64,000 nt of DNA from Escherichia coli (GTDB lineage: Bacteria > Pseudomonadota > Gammaproteobacteria > Enterobacterales > Enterobacteriaceae). Shown in pieces: positions 1,677 through 14,354 of this stretch. The stretch lies in assembly GCF_044324875.1 (NCBI RefSeq), contig NZ_CP172185.1. One strand, written 5' to 3'. Every line of letters starts with the position of its first letter. The first letter of the stretch is position 1. A program made the translations under genes and the position numbers. Under the pieces are notes generated by a model. It searched no databases. It was not told where the DNA came from and worked only from the letters and a program-made list of their open reading frames with translations.

Positions 1677-2563
1677 TGCCACTGCTGGATAAGCTGCGTA
1701 AGCTGTACGGGGTCGGACCGGTATGCAGTGAACTACATATTGCCCCGTCAACGTATTACCACTGTCAGCAACAGCGACATCATCCTGATAAACGCAGTGC
1801 CCGTGCGCAGCGCGATGACTGGCTGAAGAAAGAGATACTGCGCGTATACGATGGGAATCATCAGGTATACGGTGTGCGTAAAGTCTGGCGTCAGTTGTTA
1901 CGGGAAGGAATCAGGGTAGCCAGATGTACAGTGGCGCGCCTCATGGCGGTTATGGGACTTGCCGGTGTTCTCCGGGGTAAAAAGGTCCGCACTACCGTCA
2001 GCCGGAAAGCCGTTGCCGCAGGCGACCGCGTAAACCGTCAGTTTGTGGCAGAACGTCCTGACCAGTTGTGGGTGGCTGATTTTACTTACGTCAGCACATG
2101 GCAGGGGGTCGTCTATGTGGCGTTCATCATTGATGTGTTTGCCGGATACATCGTGGGGTGGCGGGTCTCATCGTCTATGGAAACGACATTCGTGCTGGAT
2201 GCTCTGGAGCAGGCGTTATGGGCCCGTCGACCGTCCGGCACAGTCCATCACAGTGATAAAGGTTCTCAGTATGTATCGCTGGCCTACACACAGCGGCTTA
2301 AGGAAGCCGGATTACTGGCATCAACAGGAAGTACTGGTGACTCGTATGACAACGCGATGGCGGAGAGCATCAATGGCCTTTACAAAGCGGAGGTAATACA
2401 CCGTAAGAGCTGGAAAAACCGGACAGAAGTGGAGCTGGCCACACTCACGTGGGTGGACTGGTATAACAATCGACGATTGCTGGAAAGGCTGGGCCATATC
2501 CCACCGGCAGAAGCAGAAAAAGCTTATTATGCTTCCATCGGAAACGATGATCTGGCAGCCTGA
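1673..2563 (+). CDS. IS3-family transposase OrfB (DDE integrase-like catalytic domain)
   Basis: 296-aa ORF with rve-type catalytic region (WVADFTYV..., HSDKGSQY..., DNAMAES); -1 frame relative to orfA. Confidence 0.85.
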
Positions 2564-2677
2564 GTTCACAGATAAAACACTCTCCAGGAAACCCGGGGCG
2601 GTTCACAGGTTTGTCTTTTCGTTCGTAGGGGATTCATTCGCGATTGGCGTTGCGCAATGGTGGGATACGGTAAAGTT

Positions 2678-2722
2678 TTACCGCAGTGATTAATGATGTG
2701 AAGTCAATCCAAATCAATGGAG
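2678..2722 (+). promoter_or_regulatory. conserved 5' leader motif TTACCGCA-TG-TTAATGATGTGAA...GTCAA upstream of a YagK-family gene (copy 1)
   Basis: near-identical motif recurs at 9602-9645 upstream of another YagK-like gene. Confidence 0.45.
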
Positions 2723-2732
2723 ATCTCTCATC

Positions 2733-3464
2733 ATGAACCAACCAATACACAATGCTTACTGGTTATCCCGTTTTGACAGCCTGCTCGACAGTGCCCTGGC
2801 GCAACACCGTGCCGTCTCGTTCATCCGGGTGGATTTACGGTTTCCTGAGTATATGCCTGCCACCATCATGGACTCCGGGCCGGATTCAGCGGTGATTTCC
2901 CGTTTTTTCGCCTCCCTGAAAGCCAAAATTCAGGCTTACCAGCAGCATAAGCGACGTACCAGTCAGCGTGTGCATGCAACCAGCCTGCGTTATTTCTGGT
3001 GCCGGGAGTTCGGAGAGGAAGAAAACAGGAAACATTATCACGTGATATTACTGCTCAACAAAGATACCTGGTGCTCGCTCGGGGATTTCAGCGAACCATC
3101 TTCGCTGGCGGCGATGATCCAGGAGGCATGGTGCAGCGCTCTGCATCTTGAGCCCTGGCAAGGCGATGGTCTGGTCCATTTTTCCAGGTGGAAGCCTTTT
3201 CGTAAACCAGCATCGTCTGATGCCCGTCCTTCTTCCGGTGACACCCCTTTGTCGGGTGGATGTTCTGATACCAGGAAGGCTGCAGACAAAAAGCCGGGTG
3301 AAGCCGCTGTTCTCTGGATCAAGCGTGGTGATGTGGCAGCGATGCAGAAAGCCCGGAAAAGAGCCCGTTATCTCGTGAAAAATCAAACGAAGCAGCATGA
3401 CGGTTCTGGTCAACGTAATTATGGTTGCAGCCGTGGGCCGGGGCGTCTGCTGGATGGCAGGTGA
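2733..3464 (+). CDS. YagK/YfjJ-family protein (inovirus Gp2-like, prophage-associated)
   Basis: 243-aa ORF with VSFIRVDLRFP and HYHVILLLNKD signature segments recalled from CP4 prophage YagK/YfjJ proteins. Confidence 0.6.
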   Translation: MNQPIHNAYWLSRFDSLLDSALAQHRAVSFIRVDLRFPEYMPATIMDSGPDSAVISRFFASLKAKIQAYQQHKRRTSQRVHATSLRYFWCREFGEEENRKHYHVILLLNKDTWCSLGDFSEPSSLAAMIQEAWCSALHLEPWQGDGLVHFSRWKPFRKPASSDARPSSGDTPLSGGCSDTRKAADKKPGEAAVLWIKRGDVAAMQKARKRARYLVKNQTKQHDGSGQRNYGCSRGPGRLLDGR

Positions 3465-3974
3465 AGTCTGTAAAACGGTATCCGGTGCCAGGGGGGGGAT
3501 ATCACGGTAAGGGCGTCAGCCAACGTCTTTCGCTCGTATTCTGATAACCCGTCCTGAAGTCATGTATCTGCTTCCATTCTCATGTTCATATTTCTCTGAC
3601 GCTTTCACTGTCTGTCATCGGAAGTACCGATTTATTTTGGTGCTGCGCACTTACGGCCATTCACGGAAGAGGATTGTGGTGAACAGTAGGAGTCTGGCTG
3701 CTGGCGAGGGAAGGTTCAGGACTGGTATGGGGTTTAGTGCTGGAGGATGACTTTGAATCCCGGATTGACCAGTGAGGGGGCAGTGAGAGGATGCTCTGGT
3801 GTAACAGGTCTGGATTACAAAATATAAAACCGGTTGTACACTCGTAACGGGTAAAAGGATACGGGCAATAACACGTGGTACCCGGTGAGACTGGCTCTTG
3901 TATCACATTACCGGGAATATTCTGGCAGGTGAAATGTTCTGATAAGAATCATCCTGAGGGAGGATACAACGGAT

Positions 3975-4427
3975 ATGAACGTTATTGACAGCCGCATTCG
4001 TGATGTGAAATTTGGTGAAAATGTGAAAGTCGTCATGCCAGTAAACCTCTATGAATGTGAACTGGGGGATGATGTTTTTATCGGTCCCTTTGTGGAAATA
4101 CAGAAGGGATGCATCATTGGCAACCGGAGCCGAATTCAGTCCCACAGTTTCATCTGTGAGAACGTCATTTTAGGTGATGCCTGTTTCATCGGTCATGGCG
4201 TAACTTTTCCTAATGATCTGTTTAAGTGTGGTGGTCCCGATACCTCTGCAGAAAGCTGGATACGCATCGTATTAGGTAACACTGTAACAGTGGGTAGTGG
4301 AGCGACCATTTTAACAACAGAAATTTGCAGTGGAGCTGTGATTGGTGCTGGTAGTGTGGTTACAAAGCCCGTGCTGGTAAAAGGCGTGTATGCGGGTAAT
4401 CCGGCCAGACTTTTGAGAACGCTTTAA
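3975..4427 (+). CDS. hexapeptide-repeat (left-handed beta-helix) acyl/acetyltransferase
   Basis: 150-aa ORF with repeated [LIV]G-x-x-x-x hexapeptide pattern (IGNRSRIQSHSFI, IGHGVTF, VGSGATI, IGAGSVV). Confidence 0.6.
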   Translation: MNVIDSRIRDVKFGENVKVVMPVNLYECELGDDVFIGPFVEIQKGCIIGNRSRIQSHSFICENVILGDACFIGHGVTFPNDLFKCGGPDTSAESWIRIVLGNTVTVGSGATILTTEICSGAVIGAGSVVTKPVLVKGVYAGNPARLLRTL

Positions 4428-4678
4428 TTATTGAATCCAATATTAAACCAGACAGACAGTAAACATAATACTGTTCCGGATATCGCTTGCCGCAGGAACC
4501 TCCTTAACATTCAGGAAAATAAAGCTTTTATTGCTGCTATGTACCATAAGAGACAGAAGTAATTGATTTACCAGTATTACACCTGTTGAAGCTATGGTTA
4601 TTCACCTTTTATTTTTTGAGCAGCGTATTTATACTTCCCGGAGCATTGTTTAAATATAATCGCCCGGGATTGATTCGT

Positions 4679-5584
4679 ATGGCTCTTGAACAGGAAATCG
4701 CAAACCTTGTAAACGAGTTTGTCGCGGCTGGTCGTCCATCCTGTCGTGACCAGACCTTTGATGAACGCCGTGCCGGATATATCGCAAGTACTGCTCTGGC
4801 CGGCGATACAGAAACCCGCGTAAACATCAGTGATGTGATTATTGACGATGTTTTATTGCGCATATTTTCGCCTTTAAACGATGATGGGGTGTTATCCGCA
4901 ATTGTCTATTATCATGGTGGCTGTTTTGTCAGTGGTGGTTTTGTAACCCATGATAATCAGTTGCGACAGCTTGCTTTCCTGAGCGGTTGTCGTGTCATTG
5001 CTGTACAATATCGATTAACGCCGGAACATATTTATCCTGCGGCACATGACGATGCTGAACATGCCGCTAATATTGTGTGGCAACACGCAGAAATGTTGAA
5101 AGTTGATCGCAACAGAATAACGTTAATGGGGGATAGCGCTGGGGGACATCTTGCACTGATAACAGCACTGCGGGTTAAAAACATCGGTCAGTGGTTACCG
5201 CGAAAATTAATACTTATTTACCCTATGCTGGATGCCACAGCATCATGTGATAGTTACAAATTAAACGGTAGTGACTATGTGCTGACAGCAGACACGTTTC
5301 TTAGTGGTTATGAGGCTTATTTTTCCGGTCAGGATTTAGAACATCCGGAAGTGAGTCCATTATTCAGGAATGATTTCAATGGGTTACCACCTGTTCATGT
5401 CATCACAGCGGAATATGACCCATTACGCGATGAAGGTGAGGAACTGTTTTCCCGTATGATTCAACAAGGAGTAAAGTGTACCGCCCAGCGTTATCTCGGT
5501 GTCATTCACGGTTTTTTCCAGCTTGGCGGCATTAGCCAGACAGCCCGTAATCTGATGCAGGATATTTGTGGGATTGTTAAATAA
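4679..5584 (+). CDS. alpha/beta-hydrolase esterase/lipase (Aes-like)
   Basis: HGGG-type oxyanion motif (YYHGGCF) and GDSAGG nucleophile elbow; start placed at first ATG after a TTG-initiated hydrophobic leader. Confidence 0.65.
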   Translation: MALEQEIANLVNEFVAAGRPSCRDQTFDERRAGYIASTALAGDTETRVNISDVIIDDVLLRIFSPLNDDGVLSAIVYYHGGCFVSGGFVTHDNQLRQLAFLSGCRVIAVQYRLTPEHIYPAAHDDAEHAANIVWQHAEMLKVDRNRITLMGDSAGGHLALITALRVKNIGQWLPRKLILIYPMLDATASCDSYKLNGSDYVLTADTFLSGYEAYFSGQDLEHPEVSPLFRNDFNGLPPVHVITAEYDPLRDEGEELFSRMIQQGVKCTAQRYLGVIHGFFQLGGISQTARNLMQDICGIVK

Positions 5585-5830
5585 TCACGTAACAAGCAGC
5601 TACAGGTAAATTAGCTGAGCATGCATCCATCATTTGTCGCTGCGATGCCAGACTTCCGGATGCTCATATGTTGTTTTACTTTTGTCAGCATAAATGCTGC
5701 GTCGGGACTGGTGAATGGAGATAAGCCATTTTATTATCGACGTCAGAGAACATACTCACAATGTCGGTATGTTTCTGAAATTAAGGGTAAGTTTTGCGCT
5801 GATTACAGTATGCGAAGGAGATCTGGCACA

Positions 5831-7423
5831 ATGAATCCCGCTTATATGCAATCCCCCCATTTCCCGGCAGATTTAACATACAGATTATTTCCTCGTAAGC
5901 TTGCGTATCTCATTGACGACTTATATGAAAGTACCCAACTTCCGCTGGATCTCATTTTTAATACTGTACTGGCAACGCTCTCACTCTCCTGTCAGTCATT
6001 GGTTGACGTTGTTCATCCTCACACCAACATGCCGGAACCCTGCTCACTTTATCTGTTGACAATCGCAGAGCCAGGCGCGGGAAAAACAACGATAAACAGA
6101 CTGGTGATGAACCCCTGTTACGACTTTGCCGATCGACTCATTCAACAATACGAAGAGAGAAACAAAGATTATAAAACTGAACTACAGATCTGGAATACCC
6201 GACAGAAAGCTCTTTCTGCCAGTTTAAGAAAGGCTATTAACCGGGGGTATCCGGGAGAACAGGAAGAAGAGGCGCTGCGTAATCACGAAAGAAATAAACC
6301 GACACGTCCGGTTCGACCGAATTTTATCTATGAAGATGTTTCACTTAAAGCGCTTGTGGAAGGACTCAACGAGCATCCGGAGGCGGGAGTTATTTCTGAT
6401 GAAGCGGTAACTTTTTTCAGAAGCTATCTGAAAAATAGTCCTGGTCTGTTGAATAAAGCATGGAGTGGACAACCGTTTGATTTTGGACGGGCTGACGAGA
6501 AATATCATATCACTCCACGCCTGACATTTTCGCTAATGTCCCAACCGGATGTTTTTACGGCTTATATAAATAAAAATGATGTACTGGCCAGGGGAAGCGG
6601 ATTTCTTTCCCGGTTTCTGTTCAGTCAGGTTGTAAGTTCTTCCTGGATACGTGATTATACGAGAGGTGAGTTCAGAACAATACCAACCCTGGAGAATTTT
6701 CATAAAAAGATTAACGGATTTCTGTTAAGCCATAACATTAATTCCCCCGGCATGAGCACCGAAAGGAAGACATTAAAACTTGCGAAGAAAGCGTTGGGGG
6801 AGTGGCAGGAAAACCAGAGTAAGATTGAAAGCAAAGCGCTTGCAGGAGGGGAGTGGGAACACATCAGAGATATTGTTCTGAAAGCAGGTTCTAATATACT
6901 GAGGATAGCGGGTTTATTCACCTTCTATGGCAATAAAGATGCTGAGGAAATTGAATCAATTGCGCTTTTTAACGCCATGCATCTCATGGACTGGTATCTG
7001 GAGGAGGCAAGCGCAATATTTTATCCCATGTCTGAGCGACGCCAGTTTGAGCAGGATGCCTGTGAACTGTATGCATGGATTATGACCCGAATCAGGCAGA
7101 ATAACTGGTGTGCTATCAGGAAAACAGATATTGAAAGATATGGTCCCAATCGACTGAGAAGAGCAGAAAAGCTTACACCTGTACTCAATCAGTTAATTGC
7201 TCAGAATTATTTCTGTATCATCAAAATGCGCTCGCATCAGGCACTTTATGTTTCTGTTCGTAACAATAATGGTTACCTCCTTCCTTTCGGCACAATGTCT
7301 TACGAACCGTTTGATGTTGTACCCTCCTTGTATAGTCATAATGCGAAAATATATCCCGTTAATATTCCACCGGAATTAATCCAGTCATTTGCGTTACCTT
7401 TTTCAGCCTATAACTTATTCTGA
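5831..7423 (+). CDS. P-loop NTPase, DUF3987/YfjI-like (P4 primase-associated helicase-like protein)
   Basis: Walker A AEPGAGKTT; RBS GGAG 10 nt upstream of ATG 5831; architecture recalls CP4-57 YfjI. Confidence 0.5.
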   Translation: MNPAYMQSPHFPADLTYRLFPRKLAYLIDDLYESTQLPLDLIFNTVLATLSLSCQSLVDVVHPHTNMPEPCSLYLLTIAEPGAGKTTINRLVMNPCYDFADRLIQQYEERNKDYKTELQIWNTRQKALSASLRKAINRGYPGEQEEEALRNHERNKPTRPVRPNFIYEDVSLKALVEGLNEHPEAGVISDEAVTFFRSYLKNSPGLLNKAWSGQPFDFGRADEKYHITPRLTFSLMSQPDVFTAYINKNDVLARGSGFLSRFLFSQVVSSSWIRDYTRGEFRTIPTLENFHKKINGFLLSHNINSPGMSTERKTLKLAKKALGEWQENQSKIESKALAGGEWEHIRDIVLKAGSNILRIAGLFTFYGNKDAEEIESIALFNAMHLMDWYLEEASAIFYPMSERRQFEQDACELYAWIMTRIRQNNWCAIRKTDIERYGPNRLRRAEKLTPVLNQLIAQNYFCIIKMRSHQALYVSVRNNNGYLLPFGTMSYEPFDVVPSLYSHNAKIYPVNIPPELIQSFALPFSAYNLF

Positions 7424-8202
7424 AATAAACCAACACAGATGAAACGAAAAAAAACAACATTCATTCGAAGGTTGGTGGTAAGGAGTTTGCATATCCTGCA
7501 TCTGTGCAAATATTCACCAGTTATGGGGCGCGAACGAAAATTTCTCTGAAAAAATCGCTACGGTAGCAACAGTAGCAGCACATGCACCATGTCTGTTATT
7601 TGATTTTGTTTTCATAATGACCTGTTGTCAAAGCTGATTGAATACAGGAGTGTGCGCACTGGTGGAAGAGTGGCTTTCGTTTTTGGTTATTCGAAAGAAA
7701 ATCGAAATATTGTTTTTAACATAGCTGAAGCTAATCATATAACCATATTTTTTGAGTTTTTATATATAACTTTGTTTGATTCTTGTCGTAATGAGTGCTG
7801 GCGTATATGACGATGTCGCTCTCTTTCTGAATAACGAAAGGTTATCAGTCTTTTACTGACAAGAGATGCTGTTCAGGTTTCAATGGGAGATTGAAGAAAA
7901 ACGATTTGATATTTTCCGTGAGAGAATGTCTTGTCAGGTTCATATTCATAACGGATAATTTCTTATTTTCACTCATCAGACATGGATAATTTTAATTTAG
8001 GTTTATTACTATAATTAGTATCTGTTCCTTTATTTTTATCCATCTATCCCTTTATTTTTCATCTATCTATCCTTTTATTATTAGTATCTGTATTTTTATT
8101 ATTGGCATCTGTCTATTTATTTTTATCATTCTCTCCTCTCTGTCTTTACTCTCATTGCTCTTACTCTCATTCTGTTATTTCTACTCGTGTTATCGTGTTC
8201 AC

Positions 8203-8234
8203 TCTATCACTCTATCACTCTATCACTCTATCAC
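8203..8234. repeat. 8-bp tandem repeat TCTATCAC x4 inside a ~300-bp low-complexity AT-rich tract
   Basis: direct reading of 7980-8260. Confidence 0.8.
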
Positions 8235-8985
8235 TCTATCCATCTCTCAATCATAACGATTGTCACTCATATGATACTCAGCCATGTTATTTTCTACTGC
8301 TCTGCTGAGCTTATCTGTCTGTTCTCATCTTCAGTGAAACAGCACCTGATTTTACTCTTATCCATCATGAACTGTCTTTGTTCAACGATGATGGTATGTC
8401 TGATATGTGTTAACCATTTTGATGGGTATCGTTGATTATCCGATGGTTAAGCTTCGATAAGGTTATCCATAGAACAGTGTGGGGTAAGCAACATGATCCC
8501 TGATGATATTTGTTCCGTGTTGTCTTGTTGTTTAAGCGACAGGAAATATGTCAATGGCATGTTTTATTCTGCTGCCGTGAGCCATGCATGTTCTGAAGAA
8601 CAGATTGAATGAGCGCATGTGAGTTTATTACGTTGGCCTTGTACACGTTTTTTTTAGAACCACTGAGAGCAAGTTTGTAGTTTATGATGCTATTGGTCGT
8701 AATATGTTTCTTGAACTTTTGATCGTGGGTTTTTATCTCGTATTTTTCAGCATTTCTCGGTGTTGTATTGCGTCGATATTTTCTTTATTCCCGTTAATAT
8801 CATCTCGTCAGTGTCCATTCCTTTCATCACAATGCGTATCGTTAATAATCTGTTGTATCCATCCGCCTACAGCATGCCTGATAAATACCGTCTGTCAGTT
8901 ATTACCGTTTTAGATCTGATTATGAGCGAAGGTATTCATTCGCTGACAGAACTTAAAACGTCATTAACTTACAGGAGTTATCAGC

Positions 8986-9552
8986 ATGCCTCAGTCTTAC
9001 ACACCAGACTGGTTTTTTACCGCCTTACTTGACCATCACATCGATCAAATGATGGCTCGCTATTCCTGTCTGCGGGCCTTACGGATGGATTTCTTCTACA
9101 GGAAAGAGACGCCTGATTTCTTACAACCTGATCACCGCTGGCTTGAATTGCAGTTGCGTATGCTGCTGGACCAGGTTGAACGGTTTGAAAATATGGTTGG
9201 TTTCTTCTGGGTGATTGAATGGACGGCTGATCATGGTTTTCATGCGCATGTGGTTTTCTGGATCGATCGTCAGAGGGTGAAAAAAATATATCCCTTTGCG
9301 GAGCGGATAACCGAATGCTGGCGGGCTATTACGTATAACTGTGGTTCGGCGCACCGCTGTACATACCAGCCGCATTATGCATACAACATCAACATTCCCG
9401 TGCGCCACAACGATCCTGAAAGCATCGATAATATTCGCGGTGCCCTGCATTATCTGGCGAAAGAAGAGCAAAAAGACGGACTGTGTGCATACGGCTGCAG
9501 CGAAGTGCCTGAACGTCCTGCTGCAGGGCGACCACGCAAGCTTCACGTCTGA
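8986..9552 (+). CDS. YagK/YfjJ-family protein (inovirus Gp2-like)
   Basis: 188-aa ORF, LRMDFFYRKE and FHAHVVFWIDR segments parallel to the 2733 ORF. Confidence 0.55.
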   Translation: MPQSYTPDWFFTALLDHHIDQMMARYSCLRALRMDFFYRKETPDFLQPDHRWLELQLRMLLDQVERFENMVGFFWVIEWTADHGFHAHVVFWIDRQRVKKIYPFAERITECWRAITYNCGSAHRCTYQPHYAYNINIPVRHNDPESIDNIRGALHYLAKEEQKDGLCAYGCSEVPERPAAGRPRKLHV

Positions 9553-9601
9553 AGCTTAAACCCTGAACCTCCGCACCTGGAAACAAGCCATCGGTAAAAA
9601 C

Positions 9602-9645
9602 TTACCGCATTGCTTAATGATGTGAACCGAAGTCAACGGAGTTCA
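9602..9645 (+). promoter_or_regulatory. conserved 5' leader motif (copy 2) upstream of YagK-like gene 9791
   Basis: TTACCGCATTGCTTAATGATGTGAACCGAAGTCAACGGAG matches the 2678-2722 motif. Confidence 0.45.
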
Positions 9646-9790
9646 TTCACCCTGAATGTTCTTTCCTGATATTCCCGCTCAGCGTCGGTTCTTCACCTGT
9701 TCCATCAACCTCATCCGCAGCCTGTAACCCGTCAGCCCATCCATCCCCGGGCAGGACGCGTTGTGGGCTGCGCATAACGGAGCATATCCT

Positions 9791-10366
9791 ATGAATGCTT
9801 TCCCTTATTTCGACGACAGCATGGCCCCCTTCTGGCCTTCGTATCAGAACAAAGTTATTGGCGTTCTTGACCGTGCGCTGCGTGAGCAGTCCGGCTCCCG
9901 GATACGTCGTATCCTGCTTCGTCTGCCGTGGGAACCCGATAACACCTTCAGCAGCCGCAGGACCTGGTTCGGTATGGCCTTTATTGAAACCGTCAGCGAC
10001 CTGATGAATGCAACCCCCGGACGTGACCTCTGCTGGCTCCTGACACGTCATCCTGAAAAGCCGGAATACCACGTGGTGCTGTGCGTCAGGCAGGAGTATT
10101 TCGACGGCCCTGAACTGGATCGGCTGATTCTGGATGCCTGGAGCAACGTGCTGGGCTTCGCCTCACCGGGGGAAGCGGCACCGTATCAGAAGCAGATTAC
10201 CCGGGATGTGCTGCTGGATCCCCGTTCACCGGACTGCGAGGAACTGTTCAGAGACCTGATCTGGGCGTTCAGTGATTTCGCACGTGATCGCCGGGGGGTA
10301 TACGATCCGGAAGCCCGTCACCTCGCCGGTAATCCCTGGTATCCCGGATCAGCAGGACGGCGCTGA
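9791..10366 (+). CDS. YagK/YfjJ-like protein (divergent paralog)
   Basis: RIRRILLRLPWEPD and EYHVVLCVRQEY segments analogous to YagK signature; ATG 9791 follows the conserved leader. Confidence 0.45.
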   Translation: MNAFPYFDDSMAPFWPSYQNKVIGVLDRALREQSGSRIRRILLRLPWEPDNTFSSRRTWFGMAFIETVSDLMNATPGRDLCWLLTRHPEKPEYHVVLCVRQEYFDGPELDRLILDAWSNVLGFASPGEAAPYQKQITRDVLLDPRSPDCEELFRDLIWAFSDFARDRRGVYDPEARHLAGNPWYPGSAGRR

Positions 10367-10430
10367 ACATCATGTTCAGCCGTTCCCCCGAACTTACACA
10401 TCCTTCCATTTCACCGAGGATATTCCGACC

Positions 10431-10664
10431 ATGTTGAGCACAACAACATCCCACGACAGCGTATGGTTGCGTGACGACGATCCCCTGATCGACATGATTT
10501 TCATCACCAGTTTCACCGGCATGACCGACAAATGGTTCTACCAGCTGATGAGCGAAGGCAGGTTCCCGAAGCCCATCAAACTGGGCCGCAGCAGCCGCTG
10601 GTACAGAAGCGAAGTGGAGCAGTGGATGCAGCAGCGCATCGAAGCATCACGGGGAGAAGCATGA
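10431..10664 (+). CDS. AlpA-family phage transcriptional regulator (small HTH protein)
   Basis: 78-aa ORF; FTGMTDKWFYQLMSEGRFPKPIKLGRSSRWYRSEVEQWM matches the AlpA pattern (FPKPxKLG...W...EV..W). Confidence 0.7.
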   Translation: MLSTTTSHDSVWLRDDDPLIDMIFITSFTGMTDKWFYQLMSEGRFPKPIKLGRSSRWYRSEVEQWMQQRIEASRGEA

Positions 10665-10845
10665 AAGGTATTGTGATACCGGTTCGCTGGCAATGTGCAA
10701 ACTGCCGGCGCTGGTATTGTGGTAATCCCCCCTGCCCCTGGTGCTGGCGACCTGCTGCACCGTCTGTCATTCCTCATCCTTCGCTGTAACAGGCATCGTA
10801 CCGGTGCCGGCGTGCTTTCCTGTGCACCGGCACCGGTTCAGAAAC

Positions 10846-11382
10846 ATGCAAAGAGAGCAAATCGTGCAGATAACCGAAACCGTACTTTCAGAGCCGGTGG
10901 AAATCCGGCGTTTTATTCAGCAGGCGGTGGATCACTGGCCGCGTCTGCTGGCCGTTCAGTTCACACTTCATTCAACAGGAGGAAATTGTGACGGGAGGCA
11001 GATTCATGCGTTTTACTGGGCATTTTACCGACAGCTGAATCAGCGAAGCCATACCGGATATCCGTTACTGCCGGTGGTGCTACGCTGGCTGCGGGAAACG
11101 ACAGAAAGCACAGACAGCACCGGGATACGCTGTCTGTTGCTGATCAGCCAGGATCTCATTTGCCCACCAGGATCCGGAATGACGTCTGATGACGCTGATT
11201 CGCACCTTGTGGCGTTACTGCAGCAGGCCGGCACCACACTCACGGCAGAAGGGCACTGTACGGTGGTATGCTGTTACAGGGTGGTGCGTGCAGCCACACC
11301 TGAAGGCGCTGAGTCACTCACGGCATTCAGAAACGCGTGCCTTTCGTTGGCCAGGCCCGTGATGGCCGGCATCATCCGCTAA
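10846..11382 (+). CDS. hypothetical protein, possibly another YagK/YfjJ-like paralog
   Basis: ORF immediately upstream of the helicase; weak resemblance (LAVQFTLH, IRCLLLISQD); start chosen at internal ATG 10846. Confidence 0.3.
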   Translation: MQREQIVQITETVLSEPVEIRRFIQQAVDHWPRLLAVQFTLHSTGGNCDGRQIHAFYWAFYRQLNQRSHTGYPLLPVVLRWLRETTESTDSTGIRCLLLISQDLICPPGSGMTSDDADSHLVALLQQAGTTLTAEGHCTVVCCYRVVRAATPEGAESLTAFRNACLSLARPVMAGIIR

Positions 11383-11508
11383 GCAACATGATGTATCCCG
11401 GTTCAGCCGCTGAAACCGGCTCCTTCAGCAGCAGACCGGTATGAGGTTGTTCCCCCGGACATTCCTTCGTAGAATCCGTGCTGTGTTCGTACTTCCGGAG
11501 CCGTCGCC

Positions 11509-14354
11509 ATGAAAATCTGTCTTTACCATACCCTGAATCCTGAAACGATCCCGGGCTATAAAAAGTTTGCGCAGGCCATTGAGGCAGATAATTTCGCGCA
11601 GGCGGATGTGCGTAAAATTGATACTAATCTCTACCGGGCACGCCTCAGTATCCGGGATCGGTTGTTGTTTTCACTTTACCGTTACCGTGGTGAGACGGTC
11701 TGCCTGGTACTGGAATATCTGCGTAACCATGCTTACCACACGTCACGTTTTCTGCGCAGGAATGTGGTGATCGACGAGGCGCGGCTGCAGCTGCAACCGG
11801 TGCCGGATCCGGCAGATGCAGACGCCGGTACACTGACGTATCTCAACCCCACTCACGGGCGTTTTCACTACCTGGATAAAATGCTCTCTTTTGATGATGA
11901 CCAGCAGGCGCTGTATGAACATCCGATGCCACTGGTGATTGTCGGCTCCGCCGGCAGCGGAAAGACGGCACTGTTACTGGAGAAAATGAAGCAGGCCGGG
12001 GGCGATATTCTGTATCTCAGCCTTTCGTCATTTCTGGTGGAAAAAGCCCGCACACTCTATCACGCATCTGGTGAAGAACATGACGGGCAGACCATTGATT
12101 TTCTGTCGCTGAGCGAGTTTCTGGAAACCCTGCGCATTCCGGAAGGGCGGGAGGTGACGTTCAGTGCGTTCAGCAACTGGCTGCCCCGCAACCGGACCAC
12201 CGCTGCACTGGGCTCTGGCCATACCCTGTATGAGGAATTTCGTGGTGTCATTGGTGCCGTTGCTTCTGACAACGGACCGCTGTCCCGGGAGGCGTATCTG
12301 TCGCTGGGAGTACGTCAGTCACTTTATGATATGGATGACCGTCCGGCGGTTTACGCCCTGTTTGAGCGTTATGTTGCATGGCTGAAACAGTCGCGTCAGT
12401 ATGACAGTAATCTTCTCAGCCACCAGTACCTGCCACTGGCCGGGCACCGTTATGATGTGGTTTTTGTGGATGAAGTGCAGGATATGACGCCTGTGCAGCT
12501 GCGGCTGGTTCTGAAAACCCTGCGTCATCCCGGTCAGTTTGTACTCTGCGGCGATGCCAATCAGATAGTTCATCCCAGCTTTTTTCCTGGAGTGCCCTCA
12601 AAAGCCTCTTTTTCCGGCAGCAACAGAACGAGGCTGCCGTGAATATTCTGCAGGCGAATTACCGTAACGGGCACCATGTCACCGCACTGGCTAACCGGCT
12701 GCTCAGACTTAAACTGGCCCGGTTCAGTGCCATTGACCGGGAAAGTCACCATTTTGTCAGAAGCTGCGGGCAGACGGAAGGCACCATCAGGCTGCTGGAA
12801 GACCGGGAAGCCACCCGCCATGAGCTGAACAGCAAAACCTCCCGCTCAAACCGTGTGGCGGTGATTGTGATGCAGCCGGAGCAGAAAGCACAGGCCCGGC
12901 GCTGGTTCAGTACACCGCTGGTTTTTTCGGTTCAGGAAGTGAAGGGGCTCGAGTACGAAACGGTGATCCTGTACAACATGGTCAGCAGTACCCGTAAGGC
13001 ATTTGATGATATCTGCGAAGGGATCAATCCGGCAGATCCTGAGGGTGAGGTGCGTTATGCCCACCCCCGGGACCGGCAGGATCGTTCAGCAGAAATCTAC
13101 AGGTTTTTCACCAACGCGCTGTATGTTGCGCTCACCCGTGCCACGCACAACGTGTACCTTGTTGAGCAGGAGGTGGCCCATCCGCTGTGGTCCCTGCTGG
13201 CCCTCACGCATCATGAAACGCAACTGGAGCTGCAGGAAGAGATTTCCAGCCGTGATGAGTGGCAGAAAACCGCTCACCTGCTGGAAAAACAGGGGAAGCA
13301 GGAGCAGGTGGACACCATCCGCAGTATGATCCTGCAGGAGTCAGAAGTACCGTGGCAGATCTTCAGCGCAGAGGATGCGCGGCAGTGGAAACAGCAGATC
13401 CTCAGCGGGACGGCGGACAAAGCCACGAAACTGCAGGCGCTGGAATACAGCCTGATTTATTCCCTGTTTCCGCTGTATAATGCGCTGTACCGGGAAGATT
13501 TTAAGCCCACAAGGCAGCCCCGGACCCGGAGCCAGCAGTTACTGGAGCAGAAGTATTTTCGTCCCTACTCAGTGAATAATCCGGTCGCCGTGCTGAGGGA
13601 TATTGAACGTTATGGTGTTGATCACCGCTCGCCGTTTAATCTTACGCCGCTGATGCTGGCAGCCCGGGCGGGGAACACGGCGCTGGTTCAGTTGCTGCTG
13701 GATCGTGGTGCCGATCCCACGCTGACGGCAAATGACGGGCTGGCGGCGTATCATCATGTTCTGTCAGCGGCGGTCAGCACGCCCCGTTATGCGCAGCAGA
13801 AGGGGGCACAACTCTATGCCTTGCCGGGACCGGAAAGCCTGTCACTGCAGGTGGAAGGGCGGCTTGTCAAACTGGACAACCGGCAGATGGCAATGTTTCT
13901 GGTGATCCTGATGCAGGCATTGTTTTACACGCATCTGGGGAATGCTCTGGTTTTTTCAGAAGCCTTCAGTGCGGCACGACTGGCAGAGTGTGTCGCCCAC
14001 TTTCCTGAAGCCCTGCTGCCGGAACGCCGCAGGCGGAGGAATTATATCAGCAGCCAGCTTTCTCAGCATGAAGTTAACAGCAAGAACCCTTATGGAAAAA
14101 AGCTGTTTCTGCGACTGAGGCATGGTCAGTATATTCTTAATCCGGGGCTGAAAATCAGGCAGAATGACGGGTGGTACCCGGTTTACGACTTGCAGTCACC
14201 GGAAGATCTCGGTCATGATTTACAGACGTATCTGCAGGACATGCCCCCGTACATTCTGGAGATTCTGGGGGGCAGGAAGGATGTTTACGAACAAAGTAAG
14301 GGGTCTGTCGGATACTGGGTGGCGATGATCCGCCGTCACAGTGGTGAGCCGTAA
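11509..14354 (+). pseudogene. UvrD/Rep-like SF1 helicase with C-terminal ankyrin repeats, split by a frameshift in a T6 tract (12580-12585)
   Basis: Walker A GSAGSGKT, motif II VFVDEVQD, motif III CGDANQ in frame 1; downstream NYRNG, ALTRATH motifs and ankyrin repeat (LTPLMLAARAGNTALVQLLLDRGADP) in frame 3; adding one T restores one ORF of about 947 aa. Confidence 0.7.

Follow-up and report, generated by a model that had tools for sequence, protein, structure and literature searches.

We analysed a 64,000-nucleotide (nt) stretch of an Escherichia coli genome (assembly GCF_044324875.1, contig NZ_CP172185.1; hereafter the window) and focused on four open reading frames (ORFs) of the YagK/YfjJ type, termed O1 to O4, together with a duplicated non-coding leader element that lies directly in front of O1 and again between O2 and O3. 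Taking all lines of evidence jointly, we favour with moderate confidence the reading that a common family of E. coli genomic islands, of the CP4-like AlpA/YfjI type, has this region as its conserved backbone module, that the module occurs in about one third of complete E. coli genomes, and that it combines four anciently diverged YagK/YfjJ paralogs, O3 being a probable member only, with a shared cis-regulatory leader. As judged from profile alignments, two of the four proteins retain the motifs of HUH-type nucleases and two have lost them. The four genes are:

2733-3464, + strand: O1, YagK/YfjJ ("inovirus Gp2 family") HUH-type protein of 243 amino acids (aa); PF11726, 127.2 bits
8986-9552, + strand: O2, divergent YagK/YfjJ protein of 188 aa; profile comparison
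9791-10366, + strand: O3, E. coli orphan of 191 aa, probable degenerate YagK/YfjJ paralog; hhalign
10846-11382, + strand: O4, 178-aa degenerate YagK/YfjJ paralog (172 aa with the GTG at 10864 as start); hhalign and jackhmmer

All four ORFs are present at the coordinates that an earlier note on this DNA had given for them, and NCBI calls the same genes in E. coli strain LH50-c (locus L001), which carries the same 8.9 kb at 98.7% identity; the start of O4 differs, with NCBI choosing the GTG at 10864 and not the ATG at 10846. The NCBI name of O1 is "inovirus Gp2 family protein", and O2 is an "inovirus-type Gp2 protein" or a "YagK/YfjJ domain-containing protein". O3 is a "hypothetical protein", as is O4, which in some genomes is named "YagK/YfjJ domain-containing protein".

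Homology and nuclease motifs of the four proteins

Because pairwise BLASTP among O1-O4 returned nothing significant and was uninformative, we tested paralogy with profiles. The YagK-like signature blocks that the earlier note saw in O1, O2, O3 and possibly O4 thus have no counterpart in pairwise alignment and reappear at the profile level, for O3 as a probable match. A Pfam search for DUF3296, as proposed in that note, recognized one of the four. O1 passed both PF11726 (YagK_YfjJ_C, the former DUF3296; gathering cut-off of 25.8 bits) with 127.2 bits and PF23343 ("Replication-associated protein ORF2/G2P"; cut-off of 27.8 bits) with 30.9 bits. O2 fell narrowly under both cut-offs (23.0 and 26.6 bits, respectively), and PF11726 was passed by some O2 relatives at 49-89% identity. 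Neither O3 nor O4 had a Pfam match at E ≤ 0.01, and NCBIfam yielded no match for any of the four.

The O2 family extends over Escherichia, Enterobacter, Citrobacter, Salmonella, Klebsiella, Serratia and Xenorhabdus, and its comparison with the O1 family by hhalign gave a probability of 95.9% (E = 5e-9, 177 columns). For O4 we found 29 relatives among 1.8 billion cluster representatives. Reciprocal jackhmmer searches started from O1 or O4 each recovered the other, and the genes at the O4 position in loci of other genera, which were recovered via O2, were matched by both O1 and O4; two counterparts of O4 from Serratia passed PF11726 with 42.5 and 32.1 bits. The O4 and O1 families aligned at 98.4% probability (E = 5e-15), and at 95.8% (E = 7e-9, score 61.4) when all Pfam-positive bridging sequences were taken out, compared with a maximum score of 18.1 in 40 column shuffles. 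By profile, O2 and O4 are YagK/YfjJ homologs.

The homologs of O3 that we found are all E. coli-type and, fragments aside, at least 70% identical to it. A cleaned O3 alignment matched the O1 family with a score of 38.0 (P = 3.8e-5, 112 columns, probability 71%), about 9 standard deviations (sd) above 100 column shuffles (mean 14.0, sd 2.7, maximum 24.6), and the reversed alignment scored 10.2. Against an O1 family of 84 sequences the probability rose to 83.6% (P = 8e-6), and a hidden Markov model (HMM) of the O1 family gave O3 +8.3 bits compared with -1.7 for AlpA and YfjI as controls. The register of the alignment, which pairs ...LRLP with ...DLRFP, EYHVVL with HYHVIL and DAWSNVL with EAWCSAL, is the one that the earlier note had given. 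O3 and O1 are approximately 18% identical, and in profile comparison O3 is closer to the family of O1 than to those of O2 and O4.

It could be argued that O3 is no YagK/YfjJ relative and that its profile match and signature blocks reflect chance or convergence, which would leave three paralogs, not four. O3 indeed has no Pfam or NCBIfam match and no pairwise similarity to the other three, its hhalign comparisons with the O2 and O4 families were insignificant, and its AlphaFold2 model, built on a shallow all-E. coli alignment, was uninformative, with a predicted local distance difference test score of 38.7 that made it unusable for a fold search. However, chance would have to account for a match to the O1 family that keeps the expected register (HYH/EYH, AWCSAL/AWSNVL) through 111-112 columns and lies far outside the shuffled controls, as well as for the HMM scores. 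Furthermore, the predicted order of helices and strands in O3 agrees with the O2 model, and the leader that O3 has in common with O1 is independent evidence of common descent. We consider this alternative improbable, and on profile comparison O3 is probably a YagK/YfjJ homolog.

In fold and motifs, YagK/YfjJ proteins correspond to the HUH nickases of single-stranded DNA, among them gpII of filamentous phages and viral Rep proteins. In O1 these motifs are H101-Y-H103 and Y213-L-V-K216, with both histidines nearly invariant and Y213 and K216 invariant in the family alignment. O2 has H86-A-H88 and Y156-L-A-K159, which are conserved across its family, Y156 and K159 without exception. A confident structure model of O2 showed a Rep-nuclease fold, with the HUH nucleases adeno-associated virus (AAV) Rep, parvovirus NS1 and Sulfolobus islandicus rod-shaped virus 1 (SIRV1) ORF119 as best structural matches; the O1 and O2 family profiles found no match among PDB sequences. 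Judging from these motifs, O1 and O2 are presumably active nickases.

At the position of the HYH motif, O3 has E92-Y-H94 and O4 has G-I-R; the consensus of the O4 family places Arg where the second His would be. The residue of O3 that is aligned with the catalytic Tyr is H177 (window 10319-10321), and no Tyr is present at this position in O4 and its family; these residues were mapped from profile alignments, of which the C-terminal part is of low confidence. Because position 177 is occupied by Y, H or C among E. coli variants of O3, it appears unconstrained and looks like a recently released or still-drifting site. The O3 string SDFARD was considered as a Tyr motif and discarded, as hhalign sets the Tyr opposite H177. 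As aligned, O3 and O4 are without the HUH histidines and the catalytic tyrosine, and they were most likely kept as non-catalytic DNA-binding or regulatory subunits. This set of two intact and two dead copies around alpA, fixed in the commonest island backbone, suggests a nuclease-plus-regulator arrangement.

A duplicated leader element

The earlier note had described a conserved motif of approximately 45 bp in front of the genes at 2733 and 9791. The pattern TTACCGCANTGNTTAATGATGTGAA occurs exactly twice in the 64 kb (2678-2702 and 9602-9626) and in none of 100 shuffles, well beyond random frequency, and the shared block is longer than had been claimed: the ungapped repeat comprises 35 nt that are 86% identical, and if one indel of 5 nt is allowed, the copies can be aligned over approximately 70 nt. 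The two copies are:

2668-2735, + strand: leader copy 1, with the hairpin-like CGGTAAA/TTTACCG, the core TTAATGATGTGAA at 2690-2702, GTCAA, GGAG at 2719-2722 and the O1 ATG at 2733
9576-9656, + strand: leader copy 2, a block from CCTGGAAACA, with the core TTAATGATGTGAA at 9614-9626 and GGAG at 9638-9641

Copy 1 includes the ribosome-binding site and the start codon of O1, so that the motif abuts this gene. Copy 2 lies 165 nt ahead of O3; its conserved block begins 24 nt after the O2 stop codon and ends approximately 135 nt before the O3 ATG, from which it is separated by an indel-rich spacer; only loosely can it be said to precede the gene at 9791. Because O3 possesses its own GGAG at 9779-9782 and copy 2 ends so far ahead of the ATG, upstream of the indel-rich spacer, copy 2 is not the ribosome-binding site of O3. 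The two copies resemble each other from the hairpin as far as the position of the O1 ATG and no further, and the real start of O3, AACGGAG-N10-ATGAAT, resembles that of O1.

A leader peptide after copy 2 (ATG 9656) was rejected since it is not conserved, with mostly CTG found at this position and spacer indels that are not multiples of three. GAAGTCA was dismissed as a recurrent short site because it is not enriched (10 occurrences in the window compared with 8.3 expected). The string TGAAGTCA, which follows the core in copy 1, recurs at 3555-3562, approximately 90 nt past the O1 stop codon, at a site that is kept in two other E. coli loci (L002 and L039).

In total, copy 1 was present in 1,894 and copy 2 in 1,876 of 5,426 complete E. 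coli genomes, copy 2 always in unannotated DNA. Across six copy-2 regions, taken from islands that share 77-88% identity in their coding DNA, the block was almost invariant and was followed by a spacer with many substitutions and indels; because the lengths of these indels are not multiples of three, the spacer is non-coding. In L039, where the spacer is very different, the motif has only 2 mismatches in 25 nt. Copy 1 was likewise nearly invariant in 5 aligned E. coli loci, next to a strongly diverged upstream flank. The 13-nt core was identical in 12 of 12 copies from annotated and genome-collection loci. A metagenome scan, which required the exact core and informs about the flanks only, added 46 genuine copies of each type, corresponding to 20 distinct copy-1 and 29 distinct copy-2 sequences; copy 1 was nearly invariant among its 20 variants too.

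The element is not shared by YagK/YfjJ genes at large. It is missing from yfjJ of strain K-12, and in 30 non-E. coli loci the best local alignments scored no higher than the shuffled motif; one borderline match (L011) is not located beside a YagK-type gene. Two Serratia loci contain a 26-nt direct repeat of their own (L009, 9855-9880 and 10671-10696; L012, 3472-3497 and 4279-4304), 73-77% identical and sharing AGCACTCCCTT, with one copy upstream of the O2 homolog and the other upstream of the degenerate paralog that comes next. Either these repeats are a shared leader of an analogous kind or the match is fortuitous; because chance alone would be expected to produce an 11-mer seed repeat in 4 kb, we did not count it as evidence.

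Architecture and genomic setting of the module

The module exists in two forms. In the compact form, the leader copies are 934-942 nt apart with O1 alone between them (L039); this form is the commoner one among metagenome contigs holding both copies (8 of 12). In the long form, represented by the window and the other 4 contigs, they are 6.8-10.2 kb apart and also enclose a YfjI-family gene, an AT-rich region, O2 and sometimes cargo. L039 and L002 differ by a 3.96-kb indel that comprises YfjI, the AT-rich region and O2. Its breakpoints lie approximately 100 nt past the O1 stop codon, just beyond a terminator-like hairpin, and approximately 20 nt past the O2 stop codon, not at the repeats (L039 7301-7560 compared with L002 5749-5932 and 9889-9944; window 3500-3585). 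By eye, short similar strings (CCTGAAG..., ...GCTTCC) are visible at both breakpoints.

Because a terminator-like hairpin follows O1 in both L002 and L039, and because copy 2 stays with O3 where O2 and YfjI are missing (L039), each copy heads a unit of its own. The module thus shows two leader-headed units, one formed by leader, O1 and terminator-like hairpin and the other by leader, spacer, O3, alpA, a small ORF and O4.

More than 1,000 complete E. coli genomes share the fixed order O2-O3-AlpA-O4. Of 34 loci from other genera, 30 have AlpA linked to the O2 homolog. There O2 and alpA are adjacent in either order, one or two O4-like genes often come next, and O3 is missing; this linkage of O2, AlpA and O4-like genes was seen in Serratia, Klebsiella, Salmonella, Citrobacter and other genera. 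Because the paralogs have diverged beyond pairwise detection, their order is fixed and the genes are linked in other genera, they represent an old and stable gene set and not a recent amplification, which speaks against the recombination-driven amplification that had been put forward for this cluster.

At least part of the 8.9-kb region was found in 2,122 of 5,426 complete E. coli genomes, mostly at 80-90% identity. All relevant genes of the first 14.4 kb are on the + strand, and none of the genes at 1-14.4 kb encodes an integrase, such as the tyrosine integrase that CP4-57/P4-like elements have at a tRNA or tmRNA gene. The assignment to a CP4/P4-like context made in the earlier note agrees with the presence of AlpA and YfjI/DUF3987 genes in the same module. 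Besides O1-O4 and the leader copies, the following features were identified:

1350-2563, + strand: IS629-like element of the IS3 family of insertion sequences (IS), orfA/orfB
3975-4427, + strand: hexapeptide acyltransferase (cargo); Pfam
4679-5584 (NCBI's start), + strand: alpha/beta hydrolase (cargo); Pfam
5831-7423, + strand: YfjI-family (DUF3987) gene; PF13148, 254.9 bits, start from the L001 annotation
7424-8985, strongly strand-skewed: AT-rich non-coding stretch of 1.56 kb, 33-39% GC
10431-10664, + strand: AlpA-family helix-turn-helix gene; PF05930, 41.6 bits
10661-10789, + strand: Cys-rich small ORF of 42 aa, MKGIVIPVRWQCANCRRWYCGNPPCPWCW..., with CxxC...CxxC

The end of the IS629-like element is presumably near 2605, where we place it by what we take to be the IS629 terminal inverted repeat, approximately 62 nt upstream of leader copy 1. 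Because this element probably replaced the native DNA upstream of O1, the natural O1 promoter, if any, was probably lost in this strain. The acyltransferase and hydrolase pair (3975-5584) is inserted between O1 and YfjI and is missing from most E. coli copies of the module, such as L002; this cargo lies outside the core module. DNA that is 77% identical to the hydrolase gene occurs on megaplasmids of Pantoea agglomerans. YfjI is also optional and is absent together with O2 from the compact form. Within the AT-rich stretch we found tandem arrays of 21-23-nt units (8019-8129) and of TCACTCTA, repeated 5.2 times (8199-8240), and a similar gap of approximately 1.5 kb separates YfjI and O2 in L002 and other E. 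coli copies of the module. The stretch could be an iteron-type origin or an H-NS-silenced region.

The ATG of the small Cys-rich ORF overlaps the alpA stop codon (ATGA), which suggests translational coupling; this 42-codon ORF looks like a zinc ribbon, and its counterpart in L002 is annotated as a hypothetical protein. Downstream of O4, the gene for a UvrD-like helicase that carries ankyrin repeats at its C terminus is broken into two ORFs that overlap (11509-12642 and 12639-14354); strain LH50-c has this gene too, and it is marked there as frameshifted. Farther on, the window contains lsr and phosphotransferase system (PTS)-ascorbate genes among IS elements (16.5-36 kb), and approximately 36000-61000 matches an integrative element of the Salmonella pathogenicity island 7 (SPI-7) type, with ParB, an island-type DnaB helicase, a STY4528-family replication protein, topoisomerase III and an integrase. 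Because of this SPI-7-type distal part and the lsr/PTS part, the window is a composite of several islands.

Role of the leader element and relation to known systems

We give close to even odds to the leader element being a shared cis-regulatory site, at the level of DNA or of the mRNA leader, that couples the O1 unit with the O3-alpA-O4 unit. An old tandem duplication of an O1-type gene together with its leader would have given rise to the O1 and O3 lineages. Because the two copies are alike through a ribosome-binding site and up to the position of the start codon, the O3 start resembles that of O1 and O3 is nearest to the O1 family, duplication of the gene plus its leader is the simplest history. 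The leader would then have been held almost unchanged by selection while the proteins drifted to approximately 18% identity; because the two copies are still approximately 85% identical, selection appears to act on the sequence of the leader as such. A regulator common to both copies, the other explanation offered in the earlier note, is a reasonable reading: one trans-acting factor would bind the element and couple the expression of both units. From the position and conservation of the element we infer both this regulatory role and its candidate binders, which may be AlpA, one of the dead paralogs as an island DNA-binding protein, or a factor acting on the mRNA leader.

Several results weigh against this interpretation. 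We detected no sigma-70 promoter with -35 and -10 boxes at 16-18 nt spacing in or upstream of either copy, on the gene strand (window and L002) or on the other strand; this search covered consensus promoters, and a non-canonical or activator-dependent one may be present. No sigma-54 or sigma-28 pattern was seen on inspection by eye. Rfam 15, searched over 2400-11800 up to E = 1, gave no match in the leader, its sole match being a chance snoRNA inside O2. RNAalifold predicted a weak structure (-6.2 kcal/mol) with double changes in 0 of 14 pairs, changes in the hairpin arms were uncompensated in 49 distinct variants, and single-sequence RNA z-scores ranged from -2.2 to +0.1. The core is not palindromic, unlike typical operators; the approximately 135 nt of unconstrained sequence between copy 2 and O3 are odd for a translational leader; and O3 is probably a paralog by a single kind of evidence, profile comparison, at hhalign probabilities of 71-84%. 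Because promoter, Rfam and covariation signals were lacking and the arm changes were uncompensated, the constraint appears to act on the primary sequence, that is, on a putative binding site.

A DNA site would also be expected if the intact HUH proteins O1 and O2 recognized or nicked the two copies, starting at one copy and ending at the next, so that the segment between them would be released or replicated as a single-stranded circle, a small rolling-circle unit nested in the island. In filamentous phages the plus-strand origin lies just upstream of gene II, and the nic regions of relaxases consist of a hairpin plus a single strand. O1 and O2 combine the HUH fold with intact catalytic motifs, and the layout of the element, a short hairpin followed 8-9 nt on by an invariant non-palindromic 13-mer, resembles HUH nic regions as generally known. 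The copies are direct repeats that bracket O1 in every case, the DNA that they enclose varies like a cassette, from approximately 0.94 to approximately 10.2 kb across contigs, and a lack of promoter and RNA-structure signals is what a DNA site would predict.

However, the breakpoints between the long and compact forms lie outside the element. The inter-repeat segment was considered as an independent mobile unit and rejected: it was not found as a unit ended by the motif, with few and fragmentary matches to plasmids, none to phages and a single copy of the element in IMG/VR. The hairpin arms are mismatched in most copy-1 variants, the modules of other genera possess O2 and O4-like genes but no such repeat, and the inclusion of the ribosome-binding site and start position in the similarity points to the 5′ end of a gene rather than to an origin. 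Altogether, we regard nick sites as the main competitor of a regulatory site, but as unlikely. The fuller version, in which the direct copies would be initiation and termination sites and the bracketed segment (O1 alone or with cargo, YfjI, the AT-rich repeats and O2) a rolling-circle unit under the control of O3, O4 and AlpA, is quite improbable.

We give still less weight to a repeat without any function of its own, a relic of duplication, gene conversion or partial copying that looks conserved through a recent spread of the island in E. coli, because its confinement to the E. coli-type module and its lack of a promoter, Rfam family or covariation are outweighed by a nearly invariant block between diverged, indel-rich flanks (downstream of copy 2 and upstream of copy 1) at the same loci, in islands whose surrounding coding DNA is only 77-88% identical, with far greater identity between the copies than between the proteins behind them.

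The PF11726 family and its Gp2-like annotation were already known, and full-text literature searches on the YagK/YfjJ family returned only gene lists and annotations and no experimental function. What appears to be new is the assignment of O3 and O4, the latter hypothetical in most annotations, to the superfamily as putative dead copies, the fixed set of two live and two dead copies around alpA, and the duplicated leader element. A large proportion of E. coli genomes encode YagK/YfjJ proteins, and the nickase fold and motifs, the live/dead set and the 13-nt core provide handles on them. The core, invariant in the copies examined and embedded in the approximately 70-nt element, is an obvious candidate binding site. 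Should the element prove to be a nick site or an operator, this would help to explain the excision, replication or silencing of very common islands; if the rolling-circle reading were true, it would provide a function for the YagK/YfjJ family and a replicon-within-an-island in approximately one third of E. coli genomes. If the element is neither, the gain is one of annotation, with two hypothetical proteins placed in a superfamily.

With gpII and the HUH Rep proteins (AAV Rep, parvovirus NS1 and SIRV1 ORF119), O1 and O2 share the HUH and YxxK motifs. In contrast to these Reps, O1 and O2 are short (188-243 aa) and carry no helicase or other domain, and unlike gpII they are encoded by chromosomal-island genes without a phage match. 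The origin-binding domains of simian virus 40 (SV40) large T antigen and papillomavirus E1 have an HUH-derived fold without an active site and bind DNA sequence-specifically. They are a precedent for the role proposed for O3 and O4, as a functional analogy only, since these domains are eukaryotic viral and fused to helicases, unlike O3 and O4.

In tmRNA-associated islands of Pseudomonas, an inovirus Gp2-like protein, AlpA and RadC are among the recurrent core genes, and the Gp2-like gene is directly followed by alpA in all three elements, with no function assigned (PMC12595487). These islands resemble the module in placing a Gp2-like gene beside alpA, as do the enterobacterial loci with linked O2 homologs. 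They differ in host genus and integration site, and no paralog set, dead copies or leader was described for them (PMC12595487).

A further comparison is with prophage CP4-57 of E. coli K-12, whose YfjJ, a PF11726 protein, is matched by O1 at E = 7e-25 and which likewise has a YagK/YfjJ gene beside alpA and a yfjI-type gene. CP4-57 carries one copy, in the order alpA-yfjI-yfjJ, with no leader element at yfjJ, whereas the module described here carries four, in the order O1-(cargo)-yfjI-O2-O3-alpA-O4, together with two leader copies and two paralogs that appear to lack the catalytic residues.

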